DNA from: Escherichia phage vB_EcoM_G4507
Sequence record: NC_054919.1
Reading direction: 5' to 3' (one strand)
DNA: 64,000 nt
Position numbers and translations under genes: made by a program. Positions 1 to 61,045 of the stretch are shown here, piece after piece (position 1 is the first letter of the stretch; each line of letters opens with the position of its first letter). Below the pieces are notes generated by a model, which did not search any database, had not been told where the DNA came from, and saw only the letters and a list, made by a program, of their open reading frames with translations.

Positions 1-2178
1 TTAGGCCGCAAGGGCCTTCATAGTTTTAGCGATTTGGGAAACTTCATCATCACTTAAAGAACTGCGATATCCGATGAAGTCGGAAACAATACGGAATTTC
101 TTGGTAAACTCAGCAACCATTTTATCACTGTTTTTTGAAGCATTATTTGATAATACATCAAAAAGATTAGTTACTGTCCAGATGTCATGACCGATGGTAT
201 CTTTTCCACCATTGAAATATACGCCCCGTAATGAACTAACTATATTAGCGAGTCGTGTATATTCTTCAGAAACTTCATCTGTACTGAAGTACTTCATCAT
301 AAAATCTAGTTCAGGATACTTGATAATTTTATCAATATATCGTTGAGCTGAACTTGAATAACCTACGTACTTATCATAATCTACATCATCAAAAGCATCT
401 ACATATAAATCACGCAGAGTTTCAAAAATACATTGGCACTGACCGAGTTCTTTTACCTTTTTCTGTAAAAGCGGACGAATAACATAAAATTCATTAATGC
501 CAATAAGATTAGCCATACGAATCAAAATATTCATAGATGGATGACAAAGAGATGTAGTACCATCCATAGAGAAAATATCAGAACGATGCATATACGCTAC
601 ATACCCAGTAATTTCATCTGCTTCTGATGTGAGCGTAAATAATTCCTCTTTTTCCCAGCGCCCGTCTTTAATTTCAAACTTAAATGCTGTAGCAGCTTTA
701 GGACGAGGAGCTTTACTTTTAACTACCTTTGGAATATAGCTTTTAACTAAAGCTTCAATTTCTGACAAATAATGAATGTTAACTTCATCACTTTCAAACA
801 TCGCCATAATATCAGGGAGTAAATCAATCTGCGATTCTACTTCTGGATTAATAAACAGAAGACGCTCATTGTGATGAATATTCAAAGTGTTATTAAATTC
901 ACTATCATCTAACGCATGTGCTAATCCACGAACAATATTAACACGATTTTTAATATCATCAATAACGATATTAATTTTTGTTGTATTAATACCAAACAGA
1001 CGATAACTTGATGCAACGGCTGAAGTTTCATGACTTTGCTTAATGCGCTTCAGTCGAGGGTCAAGATTTACTTCATACACAACTCCTGCATTGCATAACT
1101 TACTGTCAGGTTCAAACATGCTCTGCATCTTTTTATATGACAGATTTTTAGTCGTGAATTTGACTGAATTACTAATCATATAATCTCGAGCAGAATACCC
1201 CATCTTCATCAATTCACGATATGTGTGACGAGGAGATGTAGATTCTTTAAATCGTTTTACATCTTCATTAAATGCTTTCTCACTGAGTTCTTTAACTCGT
1301 TCAATAATATTTTTACGAGTACGATCATCCAGCGAAAGAGCCTCGCGTGATGGAGCAATATCAAGTGAACCCATTGGAAACTTAATGTAATTCACTTCAT
1401 TGCGAATGCTTAGCCAGTTACGGTCTCTAATAACACCATCGATAGGATAAACAATACCGCCATAGATAGCATATAATCCACCACGATCAGGCCAGTATCT
1501 TTCTGGATTTACGCCATAATAATCATCGAAATCCGGAAAATAATCAATTTCGCGGTCAAGACCATTAATGATAGCCAAATCTTTGAACGGTCGCATGATA
1601 TAAGAAACTTCATAAGCAAAGTTTCTAAAGTCTTTTTCTTCAACTGGAACTACGATTTCAATACCAGTTTTATCATCTGGACCCATTTCTTTTACGAATG
1701 TAGGTTTAATCTGTGGACCATCACCATCCATGTAAGCTACATAACCACGAATTTCACCTTTATGGTATGAAGTAATACTAAATGTATCAGTATAACTAAA
1801 CGGAGATTTAGAACCTAAACCAAATCCGCCAATGAAATCGTTAGATTCGGCTTTAGATGAACTGAAGTATGAATTATACAGACCAGGAGAATTATCATCA
1901 CCCTGAATATCAAAATCACTCATACCCGGACCAAAATCTCGACAAACAAATCGTGGATCTAATCGTCCTGGAACTTGAATGATAAATTTTTCAGGATTTC
2001 CATTGAGAGCATGAGCATCAATCATGTTAGTAATCAATTCACGAACTACTGCGCGAATCTTGTTTGTATACAAATCAGATGACAGAATTTTAAATACTTT
2101 AGGAGATGCTGTGATGCTAAATGCTTTTGATTTAGAACCATTACCAAGAATTGTTTCTTTTTCAGTGGTGATAATCAT
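1..2178 (-). CDS. rIIA: rIIA protein
   Basis: 725-aa ORF; N-terminus [12 protein letters not shown] and length match T4 rIIA as recalled; stop codon at window positions 1-3. Confidence 0.93.
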
Positions 2179-2447: not shown

Positions 2448-4264
2448 TATTGGCTCATCCATTCTTTACGAAGGTCAGCATTATCTCCCATGAGCATTTC
2501 AAAAAGCTCTTTCCAGTTCTCAGGAAGTTTAACAACATCATATACTGGGTTTTGAATCATCTCACGATATTCAGATTTTTCCAAAGAGCCAAGTCCCTTA
2601 ATATAACGGATGCTATGTTTAGGTAGAGCATCTTTGGCACTCTCATATTCAGCGACTGTATAAAACCATTCTTGTTTTTTACCGACCTGAGCGATGATTA
2701 CAGGAGTTTTGACAAAGCGAATTCTTCCTTGTTCAAACAGTTCTGGCCAATTACTAAAAAATCCGAGCAGAGAAGGATAAATGCTTCCTAAACCATCATG
2801 GTCAGCATCGGTCATAATAGCAATATTATGATAATTCAAGTTTTCAGCTTTTTCACCAAGAACTAATCCAGTGATTGCGCAAATATCAAATAGTTCTTTG
2901 TTTTTAAGCATATCAGCATATGACATACCCCAACTGTTGAGAACTTTACCACGCAATGGATAACCACCATGAAGTTCTTTATCACGAACATCAATAAGAT
3001 ATCCGATAGCAGAATCACCCTCAGTCAAGAAAAGAGTAGTGTCAGCATCTTTACCACAAAGATTCGCTTTGATATGTTTATGAACCTTAGCTTTAGAAGC
3101 CTTTTTAGCTGCTTTAGTTTCTGCTGCTTTTTCTGCTGCCAATTTACGTGCTAAAGCAGCTTCAATAATCGGCATTAAAATTGCTTCATTATTTAGAATA
3201 GCGCGTGAAATCTTTTTAGCATCAAGTTGAATATGACTACGAATTTCACCAAAAGGAGAAGTAAGTCGTTCTTTAGTTTGAGAATCAAATCGCATGTTTT
3301 TCATATCACGGACAAACATAACGATAGTCAAACATTCTTTGACACGCGCTTTAGTTACATCAATTTTGAACTTACGTTTGATTTGTGGAATAAGGTCTTC
3401 ACAAATATCATCCATAACACAGTCAATGTGATGGCCACCATTCTTAGTGTGAATGTTATTCACATAAGTTAATTGACGAAAACCATCCGGTGAACGACCA
3501 ACCGCAATAGAACAATTTTCTTGTTCTTGAACAATAGCATGTTCATCATACTGTCGTGCATATTTCTTAAAATTGCCCTGAACCTTTTTACCATTAAAGG
3601 TAAATTGAATATCAGGATAAACAACAGCAAGTGTCTGGAGACGATCTAGTGTAATGTCAAGATAAACTTGAGACAGCTCATTAGTTTCAAATGACATAAA
3701 ATCTGGAATGAAAGTAACACGAGTTCCTTTCCATTTTCCAGGAATAGTTTCCCATGATTTATTTTCCATGCCATTTGAACAACGAACTACAATATTATTT
3801 TGACCATCGCCAGTTTCACCGACAAACATCACAGAAAAAATGTTAGTTAAACTAGAACCAACACCATTCATACCACCGGTGACACGTTCTTTATCATCAC
3901 CAAAGTTACCACCTGCTTTTGGAATAGTCCATGCAGCAACAGGACCAGGAATTTCTTCACCGGTAGGTGTTTTAACCATCGCCTGCGGAATACCACGACC
4001 GTTATCTTCAACTGTTACTTGATTGTTTTTAATAGTAACATTAATTTTATTTGCGAATTTAAACTTAGTACGAATACCTTCATCTACTGAGTTATCGATA
4101 ATTTCATCAATAAGCTTAACAAGACCAGGTACATACTGAACACTTTCCCATTTACCAAACAGAAAGCGCTCATGCATTTCATTAGCAGAAGAGCCAATGT
4201 ACATGCCACTACGCTTTTTGATATGTTCAATATCGCTCAGAATTTTAATTTCATTCTTAATCAT
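2447..4264 (-). CDS. 39: DNA topoisomerase II large subunit (GyrB-like ATPase plus C-terminal part that is separate gene 60 in T4)
   Basis: 605 aa from ATG (track ORF begins one codon earlier at GTG); TOPRIM-type motifs EGDSA and IMTDADHDG; GAGGA RBS. Confidence 0.93.
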   Translation of the reverse strand: MIKNEIKILSDIEHIKKRSGMYIGSSANEMHERFLFGKWESVQYVPGLVKLIDEIIDNSVDEGIRTKFKFANKINVTIKNNQVTVEDNGRGIPQAMVKTPTGEEIPGPVAAWTIPKAGGNFGDDKERVTGGMNGVGSSLTNIFSVMFVGETGDGQNNIVVRCSNGMENKSWETIPGKWKGTRVTFIPDFMSFETNELSQVYLDITLDRLQTLAVVYPDIQFTFNGKKVQGNFKKYARQYDEHAIVQEQENCSIAVGRSPDGFRQLTYVNNIHTKNGGHHIDCVMDDICEDLIPQIKRKFKIDVTKARVKECLTIVMFVRDMKNMRFDSQTKERLTSPFGEIRSHIQLDAKKISRAILNNEAILMPIIEAALARKLAAEKAAETKAAKKASKAKVHKHIKANLCGKDADTTLFLTEGDSAIGYLIDVRDKELHGGYPLRGKVLNSWGMSYADMLKNKELFDICAITGLVLGEKAENLNYHNIAIMTDADHDGLGSIYPSLLGFFSNWPELFEQGRIRFVKTPVIIAQVGKKQEWFYTVAEYESAKDALPKHSIRYIKGLGSLEKSEYREMIQNPVYDVVKLPENWKELFEMLMGDNADLRKEWMSQ

Positions 4265-4333: not shown

Positions 4334-4603
4334 TTATTTAAAACGAATAGTTGAATCCTTAAAGAACAGCCCAGAACATACTGTTCCTTCTACTTTCTGC
4401 CCGGTAGGTCCAACAGCACGAAATCCAGTATGTTGGAAATCATTTTCAGAGCAACCGAACCAGTTATATCCAGTGATTTCAATATTCGTAAAACCACTTG
4501 ATGATAAAATTTTAGTTGCATTATCAGCATCAGTACATCCTACTAAAGATACTGCTAATACTAATGCTGCGATAGAACGATTAACATATTTCATAATTTT
4601 CAC
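4334..4603 (-). CDS. putative lipoprotein
   Basis: 89 aa; signal peptide with lipobox LVGC; terminator hairpin just downstream. Confidence 0.6.
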   Translation of the reverse strand: MKIMKYVNRSIAALVLAVSLVGCTDADNATKILSSSGFTNIEITGYNWFGCSENDFQHTGFRAVGPTGQKVEGTVCSGLFFKDSTIRFK

Positions 4604-18859: not shown

Positions 18860-19153
18860 TTATTCGCCTGTGATTTCGGTTACGATATTTTTGTTATTAA
18901 AGTTTTTATCGCAATAAAGAACATAATTATACTGCATTACACCACCAGACTTAAGTTGTTTTTGCACTTCAGCTTTCATTTCAGGACGATCGCGCTCAAC
19001 GATATTCATAATATCCGCTTCAATTTGAGTTTCAACTTCAGTCTGATCTGCAGTCATAGACCATTCACACAAATCTTTATCATATCCTGCCATAGCAGGC
19101 TGAGCAGCACAAGAAGCCAAAGTAAAAATTGTAGCAAAAATAAATTTTTTCAT
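18860..19153 (-). CDS. sp: Spackle periplasmic protein
   Basis: 97 aa; signal peptide MKKFIFATIFTLASCAAQPAMAG; matches T4 Sp. Confidence 0.88.
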   Translation of the reverse strand: MKKFIFATIFTLASCAAQPAMAGYDKDLCEWSMTADQTEVETQIEADIMNIVERDRPEMKAEVQKQLKSGGVMQYNYVLYCDKNFNNKNIVTEITGE

Positions 19154-24735: not shown

Positions 24736-25116
24736 TCACTTAGTCAAATTTTTTACACATGAATTATAAGAATTCACTACATACTCCATCGGAGCATTTT
24801 TACCGGTACGCCATTGGTAATTATTAGCCCAATTTGCCCAAAGCTCGGCGCAGTAGTTTTCAATTTTTTCTTCGCGTGTAATTACATCCGAATTACGATA
24901 TACTTGAGCAGATTCATCTGGACGAATAGCTTCGTCAAAATTTGCCTGCATTTGTTCTACTGTTTGCTTTGGAGCTTCTTTATAACACTTGACATTAGGA
25001 TTATAAAATTTGCTTGAACAGTTTACAATTTTTCCTACATCAGACTGATTTACTACCGGTCCTTGAGCTACACAACCAGTAAGACCTAATGCAATAACCA
25101 AAATAGCGATTTTCAT
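24736..25116 (-). CDS. putative lipoprotein (imm.1-like)
   Basis: 126 aa; signal peptide with lipobox LTGC. Confidence 0.65.
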   Translation of the reverse strand: MKIAILVIALGLTGCVAQGPVVNQSDVGKIVNCSSKFYNPNVKCYKEAPKQTVEQMQANFDEAIRPDESAQVYRNSDVITREEKIENYCAELWANWANNYQWRTGKNAPMEYVVNSYNSCVKNLTK

Positions 25117-25126
25117 AATAATTTCC

Positions 25127-25363
25127 TCAAATGCAAGTAGTAATTACTCCAGTAGTGCTTATGCAGATATTACCCATTTGCACACCTAAAGACCCATTTG
25201 TATTCACATGAAGATTATCATCAATTTTAACTGATATTTTACCATTAGTGTGAATAACGGTGCTAGATTCAATCACAGGTTGAGTATCATTTTCAACACT
25301 AACAAATGGAACTGCTGCTAATGCAACTAAACAAACTGCTAAGCATCCCATAACAATTTTCAT
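25127..25363 (-). CDS. small secreted protein
   Basis: Track start is TTG; ATG at codon 5 after GGAG RBS; signal peptide. Confidence 0.55.
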   Translation of the reverse strand: MKIVMGCLAVCLVALAAVPFVSVENDTQPVIESSTVIHTNGKISVKIDDNLHVNTNGSLGVQMGNICISTTGVITTCI

Positions 25364-56383: not shown

Positions 56384-56770
56384 TTATTCGAGGGAAAGAA
56401 GATACTTACTCTGGTAAAACATTCCAGTAATATCATCTATCGTGCTTTGAATGGCTGGAGGCATTTCTTTATAAATGCTGTTAGATTGGTCTAGTATGCG
56501 ATCAATCATTTTAATTGTGTCGGTAGGAAGTTTACTGGCATCTGGAATTGAAGGCGTGTATTTTCTACCAGAATACCCCAAATATTGCTCACCAAATTTA
56601 TCAATCAAATCTGGCAATTCGGAGAAAATAAAATCGTATGCTTTGTGTCTAGCATAACTTTTAGTTTCAAAATGCGCAGAATGAAAATAAGCTTGTGCAG
56701 CCATTAATAAACCTAAGTATTCATCTGCCTTTGAAGGTTTTCCACTTTGTGAAAAGTCGCTGAATTTCAT
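56384..56770 (-). CDS. hypothetical protein
   Basis: 128-aa ORF. Confidence 0.55.
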
Positions 56771-57060
56771 TCAGTCTCCAATTTAATGTTCATAATTCTA
56801 GTGTATGATTGTGCCATCTCCGCGCCTCGTTCTATACATTCGAAATCAGAAGAGCACGGGTCATTTTTATAGGTCGTTCTCATAAAACTATAGAACTGTT
56901 CAGATGATTCTACGCTTTTATTTTCAAAAAGCATATAAACATGTCTAATACCAGATTCCATAAATTTATCAAAATGAGGATCGACATTCGCTTCAATTGG
57001 TGGAGATAAAGCAAATGACAATCCTAGCATGGCAAATAGTGCCGTTGCTTTTAAGGCCAT
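56767..57060 (-). CDS. rI: lysis inhibition regulator (antiholin) rI
   Basis: 97 aa with signal anchor; MALKATALFAMLGLSF...DPHFDKFMESGIRHVYMLFENKSVE matches T4 RI. Confidence 0.9.
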   Translation of the reverse strand: MALKATALFAMLGLSFALSPPIEANVDPHFDKFMESGIRHVYMLFENKSVESSEQFYSFMRTTYKNDPCSSDFECIERGAEMAQSYTRIMNIKLETE

Positions 57061-58675: not shown

Positions 58676-58863
58676 TATTCTTCTACATGTTGTTTACGAC
58701 CTTTCTTATCAATAAAGGTATATTCAACGAATGTTCCAATGTAGTCTTTATCTACATCATGTGGACTATTAATTGGGCATTTAGTACGGCAAATGCGTTC
58801 CCATTGACGAATAATTACTGCTTTGTTTTTAGGATCAAACGGATGTGGGTAATGTACTTTCAT
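58651..58863 (-). CDS. hypothetical protein
   Basis: 70-aa ORF. Confidence 0.5.
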   Translation of the reverse strand: MKVHYPHPFDPKNKAVIIRQWERICRTKCPINSPHDVDKDYIGTFVEYTFIDKKGRKQHVEEYCLKVTWL

Positions 58864-59314
58864 AATCCACCACTATTAAATCAATATCAGGAGTAAACAT
58901 GTCGATTAATTTAGAAACCTTATCCCAATCGCCGCCAGCAATACCACAACCTATACGTGGAATGTAAATTACTGGTTTAAACAAAAGGGTTTCTGCCTGT
59001 AGATTTAATTCTATCATGCAGTTTACTAAAGCACCATAATCAAGATTAGGACCTGGTTCGTATTGCGTATACAAGTTATAACATATGCCAAACCCATTAG
59101 GTTTATGTTTAAAAACAATAGACATATCGCCTAATTTATCACGAGAACCGTACTCAGTAGTGGTTTTATCTATTTCTAAAATTTTGGGATAGGCTCTTGC
59201 TAATTGACCAGCTACACCACTGCCCATTGTATGAAAACAGTTACACCCGTGCGCAATAATATTACCTTCAAGAAAGAGGGCGACAATATCGCCCTTGATA
59301 TATTTTACAATCAT
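58835..59314 (-). CDS. macro-domain protein (predicted ADP-ribose binding/processing)
   Basis: 159 aa; GDI...IAHGCNCFHTMGSGVAGQ and IPRIGCGIAGGDWD resemble macro-domain motifs. Confidence 0.6.
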   Translation of the reverse strand: MIVKYIKGDIVALFLEGNIIAHGCNCFHTMGSGVAGQLARAYPKILEIDKTTTEYGSRDKLGDMSIVFKHKPNGFGICYNLYTQYEPGPNLDYGALVNCMIELNLQAETLLFKPVIYIPRIGCGIAGGDWDKVSKLIDMFTPDIDLIVVDYESTLPTSV

Positions 59315-59658
59315 CTAGTACTCAATCCTCGATTATAAGAATCTACTAAACGGTCAACCATTGAATGACAAGCGGCTTTATCTTTTTCCTCCGCAACTGA
59401 ACATTCTAGGGTATTCCACTTTTTAGCATATCGTTTTAATAATGTATCGTTTTTGTATCTGCTTGATTTATCTCTTTCTCCGTCTTTATATGCATATATT
59501 AATTTCTGCGCAAATTCAGCTTGGCATGCTTTATTTTTCCCGCAATAATCTGCCGCAGTGCGGTTCACATACTCCCTAATTTCAGTATATGATGTATCTG
59601 CTGACGCATAAGCAGAAAATGAAATTAATCCTATACATAAAACCAAAATTTTAGTCAT
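59311..59658 (-). CDS. secreted hypothetical protein
   Basis: 115 aa with signal peptide MTKILVLCIGLISFSAYASA. Confidence 0.6.
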   Translation of the reverse strand: MTKILVLCIGLISFSAYASADTSYTEIREYVNRTAADYCGKNKACQAEFAQKLIYAYKDGERDKSSRYKNDTLLKRYAKKWNTLECSVAEEKDKAACHSMVDRLVDSYNRGLSTR

Positions 59659-60196
59659 TTACTATTTCCAAAAGTTTATTATTTTTAAGGTAATTAGCCT
59701 TTTCTAGGACTTCAGAAGCATATTTAGAACCTGCTTTAACATTCCATCCCGAATTATAAGAGGATATTGCTTTTCTTATATCGCCCTTATGTATATTTAA
59801 CCAATAAGAAAGTTCAATGTACGCCCAGGAAGCTGAATTGGATCGTTTATTCAACATTCTTTTTATTTCAGCATCGGTCATATTATAACCAAGTTCCTTA
59901 ACTCTCGCTCGCATAGTAGGCAAATAATTTTGGAACATTCCGTAAGCATGATGTTTTGGTTTAGATTTTAAATTAACTCCGCCAGAGCTTTCTTGCCATA
60001 AAATAGCAGCCATTATATGACCTAATCCGCTCTTGTGGATATTTTTGTGTGTTTTATATTTTCCATCCTTAGAAAATTGTTCCCCGAATTGATACGCGTA
60101 ACGCATGTTATCGAGTTGGACATTACTGAAAGTATGCTCGGAGCTATGTGCCATCATTGAAATGGCCAATAGACCAGCGAGTAGTGCTTTTCTCAT
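59651..60196 (-). CDS. secreted lytic-transglycosylase-like protein
   Basis: 181 aa; signal peptide; SLT-like motifs LWQESSGG and YGMFQ. Confidence 0.6.
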   Translation of the reverse strand: MRKALLAGLLAISMMAHSSEHTFSNVQLDNMRYAYQFGEQFSKDGKYKTHKNIHKSGLGHIMAAILWQESSGGVNLKSKPKHHAYGMFQNYLPTMRARVKELGYNMTDAEIKRMLNKRSNSASWAYIELSYWLNIHKGDIRKAISSYNSGWNVKAGSKYASEVLEKANYLKNNKLLEIVND

Positions 60197-60203
60197 GTTT
60201 ACC

Positions 60204-60665
60204 TCATTGAGTTTTAATTACTGCTTTAGAAGCCTTTCCTGGTAAACGACGACTGTTGATAATTGCCATCCTACATTGAAGTGACGGGTCTTTGAACTTC
60301 TCATTAGGTTTACAAACTGTAAATCCAAGCCAAAGATTTCCATCTGTAATTTCTAAACGTCCAGGACGATATTCAACTCCATCAATAAAATCCTCATCAA
60401 TGTCAGGACGCGGAGGCATACTCAGGAATTCATTAACTTCTAAAACATGGTCTTTTATTTTATGGAATAATTCAAAAACATATGTCTCATCAATCTCCCG
60501 TTGAATTGCACGATCAAGAAGATGTTGAGAATATTTTAGATGAAACGATGAGACCCCTGCTGCTTTTGATGCCTCACGAATCTCATTGTTAATTTGACGA
60601 AACTCCGACTCAAAGTGACGACGAAGCTTATTTCGACGGATAAAAACTTCTGTATTGATAGTCAT
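60204..60665 (-). CDS. regB: endoribonuclease RegB
   Basis: 153 aa; size and position match T4 RegB. Confidence 0.85.
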   Translation of the reverse strand: MTINTEVFIRRNKLRRHFESEFRQINNEIREASKAAGVSSFHLKYSQHLLDRAIQREIDETYVFELFHKIKDHVLEVNEFLSMPPRPDIDEDFIDGVEYRPGRLEITDGNLWLGFTVCKPNEKFKDPSLQCRMAIINSRRLPGKASKAVIKTQ

Positions 60666-60692
60666 GTTATTCTCCTCTTAACTGATAGAAAA

Positions 60693-60722
60693 ATTATACC
60701 ACAGTCAAGAGGAAAAGTAAAC
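60693..60722 (-). promoter_or_regulatory. early-type promoter upstream of regB (GTTTAC -35, TATAAT -10)
   Basis: Minus-strand motif. Confidence 0.55.
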
Positions 60723-60796
60723 AGTTATTCTTTAAATCTAATCAATTTATTCATAGACTTTGAAACTTCTGCACGAACCTCATGTAAGTTTTTAAG

Positions 60797-61045
60797 CTAT
60801 TCAAGACGCTGCGTATAGTAAGCAATTTCATCTTCTTCGAGACAGTCCTGTGAATCTTCTTTAAGATAACGTGCATAGTCCTGAAAAGCTTTACGGACTA
60901 CTTCCTGGAAGTCATCAAGACTTTGAATTTTCTTAGGAGCGGCAGATACACGACGAGGTGCAGTATAATACTCATAACCAAACCCTGCACTTAATTGAGC
61001 CATTAGTATTTTTCCTCTGGTTGGAACACTGCACGACAAGCCCAC
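60797..61045 (-). CDS. hypothetical protein (vs.3-like)
   Basis: 82-aa ORF. Confidence 0.5.

Follow-up and report, generated by a model that had tools for sequence, protein, structure and literature searches.

We analysed a 64,000-nucleotide stretch of DNA from Escherichia phage vB_EcoM_G4507 (sequence record NC_054919.1; hereafter the window) and examined two adjacent minus-strand open reading frames (ORFs) at positions 59311-60196. Both are catalogued genes of phage T4 and in that sense already known: the first to be transcribed is vs.1, and the second is vs, whose product carries the annotation valyl-tRNA synthetase (ValRS) modifier. Both products are predicted to be exported. Vs.1 is very probably an exported lytic transglycosylase, and the sequence of Vs indicates a periplasmic protein. 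Together, vs.1 and vs may form a co-translated periplasmic enzyme-partner module, a proposal whose chances we judge to be evenly balanced; that Vs acts as a regulator of Vs.1 we put forward somewhat more tentatively. A preliminary description of this DNA had reported the two ORFs, of 181 and 115 amino acids (aa), and both exist as described; it recognized neither the named T4 genes nor the ValRS-modifier annotation of Vs. The remaining interest of the locus lies in the conflict between the sequence features of Vs and this textbook annotation. The features of the two genes are as follows.

59651..60196, minus strand: vs.1, encoding a 181-aa precursor, a predicted exported GH23 / family-1 lytic-transglycosylase-like enzyme.
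60143..60196, minus strand: predicted Sec signal peptide of Vs.1 (MRKALLAGLLAISMMAHS), codons 1-18, with candidate cleavage between AHS and SE.
59735..60016, minus strand: SLT domain of Vs.1, residues 61-154, with the Glu69 codon at 59990..59992, GMFQ at residues 86-89, and YNSG at residues 147-150.
59311..59658, minus strand: vs, encoding a 115-aa precursor (phrog_1256, T4 annotation), a predicted exported two-disulfide four-helix protein.
59599..59658, minus strand: predicted signal peptide of Vs (MTKILVLCIGLISFSAYASA), codons 1-20, with candidate cleavage between AYA and SA or between ASA and DT.

The 181-aa product is 100% identical to T4 Vs.1 (UniProt P13311; ORF 61.4 of X04567), with no sequence-level difference, and it is encoded in the same gene order as in T4, regB-vs.1-vs-tk.4. 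The SLT-like motifs named in the preliminary description are located at residues 66-73 (LWQESSGG) and 85-89 (YGMFQ), and its suggestion of an SLT-like enzyme was borne out by profile, conserved residues, and predicted fold. Pfam SLT (PF01464) matched residues 61-154 with 25.1 bits (E 1.4e-5), against a gathering cut-off of 21.3, and several Vs.1 homologues carry a precomputed PF01464 match. In an alignment of 20 sequences reaching down to 40% identity, E69, G86, F88, Q89, Y147, N148, and G150 are invariant, and S70 is nearly so. We take these conserved motifs to be the ES, GLMQ, and AYNxG motifs of family-1 lytic transglycosylases. When Vs.1 was compared by hhalign with the Slt70 C-terminal domain (E. 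coli), the match was weak overall (E 0.083) and placed WQES of Vs.1 opposite RQES of Slt70, with its precursor residue Glu505, which corresponds to the catalytic Glu478 of the mature enzyme after loss of a 27-residue signal peptide.

The AlphaFold2 model of Vs.1 has a predicted local distance difference test score (pLDDT) of 86. Its top Foldseek matches in the Protein Data Bank (PDB) were MltD, a GH23 chitinase, a goose-type lysozyme, LtgA, and Slt70, with probabilities of 0.85-1.00. A search of PDB sequences with a Vs.1 profile returned nothing significant, so the kinship with lytic transglycosylases is visible only through Pfam, motifs, and fold. Profile, motifs, and predicted fold support Vs.1 as a real SLT/GH23-type protein. 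The mature form is predicted to have 163 residues, a mass of about 18.8 kDa, and an isoelectric point (pI) of 9.7. Like the family-1 lytic transglycosylases (the E. coli Slt70 domain, P. aeruginosa MltD, and Neisseria LtgA), Vs.1 is modeled with a lysozyme-like fold and has the glutamate of an E-S pair aligned with Slt70 Glu478, GLMQ-like and AYNxG-like motifs, and predicted Sec export. Unlike the solved lytic transglycosylases, with which it shares about 15% identity, Vs.1 consists of a single small domain with no superhelical, LysM, or lipoprotein-anchor module; it is also phage-encoded and made early, and is neither a virion nor a lysis enzyme.

The SLT similarity of vs.1 is already known. 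Nolan et al. 2006 reported that vs.1 of six T4-like genomes matches SLT, and stated that this corroborated PSI-BLAST results obtained earlier, in which T4 vs.1 had matched a lysozyme domain. Several GenBank records label Vs.1 "transglycosylase SLT domain-containing protein", and the gene is present in about 2000 phage records. The literature searched contained no experimental function of vs.1, and neither NCBIfam nor PADLOC gave a match for Vs.1 or Vs. Other labels are erroneous: the product appears as "endoribonuclease", carried over from regB, in phage ECP52 (3852..4397 of locus L001), O157 typing phage 13, and others, as "Endoribonuclease RegB" in an Acinetobacter phage, and as "C-type lysozyme/alpha-lactalbumin family protein" in one record.

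Export of both proteins is predicted from their N-termini: in each, a basic n-region precedes a hydrophobic core, AXA-like sites follow at about residues 18-20, and the protein contains no other hydrophobic segment. We judged these regions by our own n/h/c heuristic and not by a trained predictor. By this measure, Sec-type features were present in every homologue of both proteins examined (33 homologues), in agreement with the signal peptides proposed in the preliminary description. Across 20 homologues of Vs.1, the signal segment keeps its character while its sequence varies. The heuristic was selective, with 7 of the 155 ATG-initiated ORFs of at least 60 aa in the window passing it. Two of the seven are, as we take it from sequence and position, Spackle (18860..19153) and RI (56767..57060), both of which are exported proteins. 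Three more small ORFs that passed, all on the minus strand, lie at 4334..4594, 24736..25116, and 25127..25363; they belong to phrog_902, phrog_1754, and phrog_4189, of unknown function, and two of the three have lipobox-like LVGC or LTGC motifs.

The 115-aa product matches phrog_1256 (E 1.4e-39), annotated "valyl-tRNA synthetase modifier", and is 99.1% identical to wild-type T4 Vs (UniProt P13310). PF26829 is precomputed on all homologues, and the window protein is a member of this family. Vs is Cys-containing and basic, as previously described, with a pI of 8.9 and five cysteines, four of which follow residue 22 and lie past the hydrophobic N-terminal segment. These four, Cys39, Cys45, Cys86, and Cys97, are kept in thirteen close homologues, in which the first approximately 20 residues vary yet stay hydrophobic. 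The same holds over a much wider range: among 43 distinct full-length Vs sequences, with a mean pairwise identity of about 0.37, all have the four-cysteine pattern C-x5/6-C ... C-x8/10-C, and all have an N-terminal export-type segment, which in five members of one lineage is a lipobox. In that lineage, LSGC (MKKLFVLLIVFALSGC) replaces the signal peptide. T4 Vs itself was considered as a lipoprotein and rejected, with Cys8 in LVLC lying too early, preceded by Leu at position -1, and not conserved.

The AlphaFold2 model of Vs is a four-helix bundle (pLDDT 84) in which the cysteine pairs bracket the turns between helices 1 and 2 and between helices 3 and 4. From this arrangement we infer two stapling disulfides, Cys39-Cys45 and Cys86-Cys97. 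The mature exported form would have a mass of 11.0-11.2 kDa. In a structural-genomics attempt, N-terminally His-tagged full-length Vs formed inclusion bodies in E. coli; such insolubility fits an exported precursor, though it is not specific to one. Because the export signal or lipobox and the four cysteines are conserved, the sequence indicates a periplasmic protein that would fit poorly with cytoplasmic binding of ValRS. Binding of ValRS in vivo needs a cytoplasmic location, and export is what the sequence predicts. The name Vs thus implies a compartment with which the signal peptide or lipobox, the two cysteine pairs, and the position after an exported enzyme do not fit.

Comparisons with other proteins left Vs within its own family. 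By sequence, it gave only chance matches to solved structures. Its model had no similarity to any solved inhibitor fold and, in BFVD, recovered only its own family, while hhalign detected no relationship to Spackle. A Vs profile searched against 1.84 billion representative proteins, a library that carries neither names nor context, returned 8 matches, none of them tied to a cellular protein, so there is no cellular homologue whose function could be borrowed for Vs. The 1986 T4 sequence record lists vs only as "ORF 60.9", and no paper in the literature searched joins a signal peptide with the name Vs.

We then surveyed the pairing of the two genes across phages, using 53 loci with a vs.1 homologue and a broadened Vs hidden Markov model (HMM) built from divergent family members. 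A tblastn search with T4 Vs alone (794 records) had understated the range of the family, and the broadened HMM corrected this. In 50 of the 53 loci, a Vs-family ORF lies directly downstream of vs.1, the spacing being -8 to +3 nt, over loci in which Vs.1 identity ranges from 100% down to 43%. In these 50 loci the two genes are adjacent and co-oriented and both products have export signals, the arrangement expected of a periplasmic enzyme-partner pair. Divergent relatives of Vs stand beside vs.1 in Salmonella phage S16 and in an Acinetobacter phage, and others occur in the large representative library. The preliminary description had suggested that the small protein is a partner of the enzyme; this now has comparative support in the tight conservation of the gene pair, with modulation of the enzyme as the conjectural part of the claim.

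Damaged Vs genes were found in three loci, as an internal deletion that removes the first cysteine pair and as a split gene. The deletion is seen in Dhakavirus vB_EcoM_005, whose 85-aa Vs lacks helix 2 together with the first cysteine pair (1501..1758 and 3041..3298 in loci L007 and L030), and the split into two ORFs is seen in one IMG/VR contig (2501..2828 of locus L016). Such variants offer naturally occurring losses of function whose phenotypes could be compared. Between vs and tk.4, Salmonella phage S16 and a related 172-kb lineage encode a further predicted exported protein (2818..3237 of locus L013; 2366..2767 of locus L009). This protein, a member of phrog_4957 (function unknown), has 133-139 aa with a signal peptide and completes a run of three consecutive products with predicted export.

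Both ORFs are embedded in a Tequatrovirus (T4-like) genome segment. Over positions 58800-60700, where all genes are on the minus strand, the nucleotide sequence matches that of Escherichia phage ECP52 at 100% identity, and about 500 other T4-like records match it at 95-99%. The genes are transcribed in the order regB, vs.1, vs, tk.4. The two ORFs, which the preliminary description had placed upstream of regB, therefore lie 3' of this gene and are transcriptionally downstream of it. The surrounding features are as follows.

60693..60721, minus strand: T4 early-type promoter (GTTTAC ... TGgTATAAT) upstream of regB, from a consensus scan with 10/12 matches and an extended -10 TG.
60204..60665, minus strand: regB endoribonuclease (Pfam REGB_T4, E 8e-69), the gene immediately upstream in the unit.
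59651..59658, minus strand: overlap of the vs.1 stop and the vs start, 8 nt (AATGACTAA), with a weak GGAA upstream.
58835..59314, minus strand: tk.4 / adfM macrodomain gene (Pfam Macro), whose start overlaps the vs stop by 4 nt.

The early-type promoter probably drives the regB-vs.1-vs-tk.4 unit. The 8-nt stop/start overlap, together with a GGAA that is only weak, suggests translational coupling, and vs is probably translated in a manner coupled to vs.1. No MotA-box middle promoter matching the pattern used was found within 59250..60900. At 59277..59296, 16 nt past the vs stop and within the first tk.4 codons, there is a perfect GC-rich hairpin of 8 bp (AGGGCGATATTGTCGCCCT on the minus strand, with CTTTCTT after it); it could act as a partial terminator or as an RNA 3'-end stabilizer of the regB-vs.1-vs message. 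The RegB cleavage motif, GGAG, is part of the Shine-Dalgarno sequence of regB (60672..60675, minus strand). It is missing from the corresponding regions of vs.1 (GAGG) and vs (GGAA), although it is present inside both coding regions. With tk.4 identified as AdfM, an anti-DarTG2 factor (bioRxiv 10.1101/2025.11.20.689424), this early operon mixes an RNase, two predicted exported proteins, and a counter-defence enzyme.

Published data bear on expression and fitness. In T4 omics data, vs.1 and vs RNA is early and both proteins are detected. A T4 transposon study, HIDEN-SEQ (bioRxiv 10.1101/2025.11.20.689424), found vs.1 and vs non-essential on lysogeny broth (LB) plates. In its liquid LB competition, the mean reads per TA site were 26.6 for vs and 22.6 for vs.1, compared with 178.6 for regB, 289.6 for tk.4, and 652 for vs.3. 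Comparing LB with M9-glucose, the same study gave vs a log2 fold change of -2.19 (adjusted p reported as 0.00000), making it the most depleted gene according to the paper, and vs.1 a log2 fold change of -0.87 (p 0.0055, adjusted p 0.155). A clean vs deletion impaired plaques in M9. We read these data as showing that both genes aid fitness in the same direction and that loss of Vs is worse than loss of Vs.1. The pattern is compatible with a Vs that restrains the enzyme, and equally with partial polarity of vs.1 insertions on vs.

Based on these observations, we propose the following sequence of events. Early in infection, a transcript from the regB promoter would be made, and vs.1 and vs would be translated from it in coupled fashion. 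Both precursors would pass through Sec. Vs.1, a basic enzyme of about 18.8 kDa with a predicted GH23 / family-1 lytic transglycosylase fold, would then be freed into the periplasm, where its Glu69 would cleave the bond between N-acetylmuramic acid and N-acetylglucosamine in the peptidoglycan of the host murein sacculus. Mature Vs, of about 11 kDa, would fold as a four-helix bundle with two disulfides formed by DsbA. Most likely, Vs would bind Vs.1 and restrain or direct its activity, in the manner of the immunity or inhibitor protein of a secreted muramidase. The purpose could be envelope remodelling, lysis priming, or peptidoglycan turnover under nutrient limitation.

The proposed arrangement is analogous in its logic to T4 gp5 lysozyme with Spackle, to the Tge-Tgi pairs of the type VI secretion system, and to Ivy-type inhibitors of lytic transglycosylases, in each of which a periplasmic peptidoglycan-cleaving enzyme is matched with a small periplasmic partner that is disulfide-bonded or a lipoprotein. 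In Tge-Tgi-type immunity pairs, the partner is encoded immediately downstream. The analogy does not extend to homology or fold, in which Vs resembles no known inhibitor. The roles in superinfection control or in acting on a host lysozyme inhibitor that the preliminary description had offered found no support, with Vs unlike Spackle and unlike any solved inhibitor fold.

Several points weigh against an exported enzyme-partner pair. Vs is annotated as a factor that binds a cytoplasmic host enzyme, ValRS. Classical genetics and biochemistry showed that a T4 peptide of about 10 kDa stabilizes a temperature-sensitive ValRS in vivo, and because the stabilization occurs in vivo, the factor must be cytoplasmic. 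Three lineages, represented by Aeromonas phage phiAS4, a Kuttervirus, and a Felixounavirus, carry vs.1 without vs, and Vs is thus not strictly required by the enzyme. Broad synteny among T4-like genomes makes adjacency alone weak evidence of a functional link. The Foldseek E-values of Vs.1 are modest, from 5e-3 at best to 0.2, and the weaker effect of vs.1 insertions in M9 could reflect partial polarity on vs. Among the vs-less lineages, Felixounavirus HY02 has its vs.1 homologue (1501..2049 of locus L010) after rIIA-rIIB and before genes for a polynucleotide kinase and an Rz-like spanin, and the homologue of Kuttervirus PLL1 is a 205-aa form with extra cysteines.

Much of this would be accounted for if Vs were a cytoplasmic ValRS-binding factor of about 10 kDa whose N-terminus does not serve export, with its adjacency to vs.1 a matter of synteny and Vs.1 acting alone. 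The ValRS-modifier annotation is uniform, the literature states that Vs binds ValRS, and the vs defect seen in minimal medium agrees with a translation-related role when nutrients are limiting; the whole order regB-vs.1-vs-tk.4-tk is syntenic, and the three vs-less lineages point the same way. We nevertheless consider this explanation rather unlikely. It leaves aside the Sec-type signal, or the lipobox in one lineage, in 43/43 distinct members, and the four patterned cysteines kept at about 37% identity, which are typical of periplasmic and not of cytoplasmic proteins. The Vs family also occurs in an Acinetobacter phage, whose host ValRS would be expected, as an expectation only, to differ from that of E. 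coli. Furthermore, vs.1 insertions carry a similar fitness cost in LB, and none of the papers searched that concern Vs takes up its signal peptide.

Alternatively, vs might give two products, a full-length exported protein and, from an internal GTG at codon 31, an 85-aa cytoplasmic peptide that binds ValRS. This GTG has AGGGAG 3 nt upstream, and the peptide would have a predicted mass of 9.8 kDa. Muller and Marchin reportedly gave the ValRS factor a size of about 10 kDa in 1977. Phage IME340 has an 85-aa Vs entry that matches the C-terminal part of the window protein at 100% identity, and we read it as an internal-start call. Such a second product is nonetheless improbable: efficient initiation would need more than 3 nt between the Shine-Dalgarno sequence and the start, many homologues have Thr or Ala at residue 31 and so do not conserve the start codon, and the four cysteines of the short form would lie in a reducing compartment. 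The mature exported form, at 11.0-11.2 kDa, fits the size of about 10 kDa almost equally.

That Vs.1 is instead a hydrolytic muramidase resembling goose-type lysozyme, or a non-catalytic peptidoglycan-binding protein, we regard as very unlikely: GH23 does include hydrolases and chitinases, the fold matches include both g-type lysozyme and a GH23 chitinase, the Pfam SLT score is barely over threshold, and the hhalign match to Slt70 is weak, but the invariant ES, G-x-F-Q, and Y-N-x-G motifs are of the family-1 lytic transglycosylase type and Glu69 is strictly conserved, which speaks against a non-catalytic protein. Because the 20-sequence alignment contains no invariant Asp able to act as a second catalytic acid, lytic-transglycosylase chemistry is favoured over hydrolysis, though not proven.

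Returning to the exported enzyme-partner pair, its most far-reaching form holds that the ORF, known as vs for about 40 years, encodes not, or not only, a cytoplasmic ValRS modifier but a periplasmic, disulfide-bonded, regulator- or immunity-like partner of Vs.1, within a hitherto unrecognized envelope-remodelling module, conserved among T4-like phages, on which growth in minimal medium depends. In that case the ValRS peptide would be the product of another gene, or a minor product of an internal start. Taken as a whole, we consider this possible but doubtful.

With respect to phage biology, vs.1 is a widespread early phage gene for a predicted exported peptidoglycan-cleaving enzyme, and its insertion mutants have a measurable fitness cost. 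If Vs is indeed periplasmic, the strongest minimal-medium phenotype of the T4 transposon screen would need an explanation in the cell envelope and not in translation, and the label "valyl-tRNA synthetase modifier", carried on hundreds of phage genomes, would need to be revisited.

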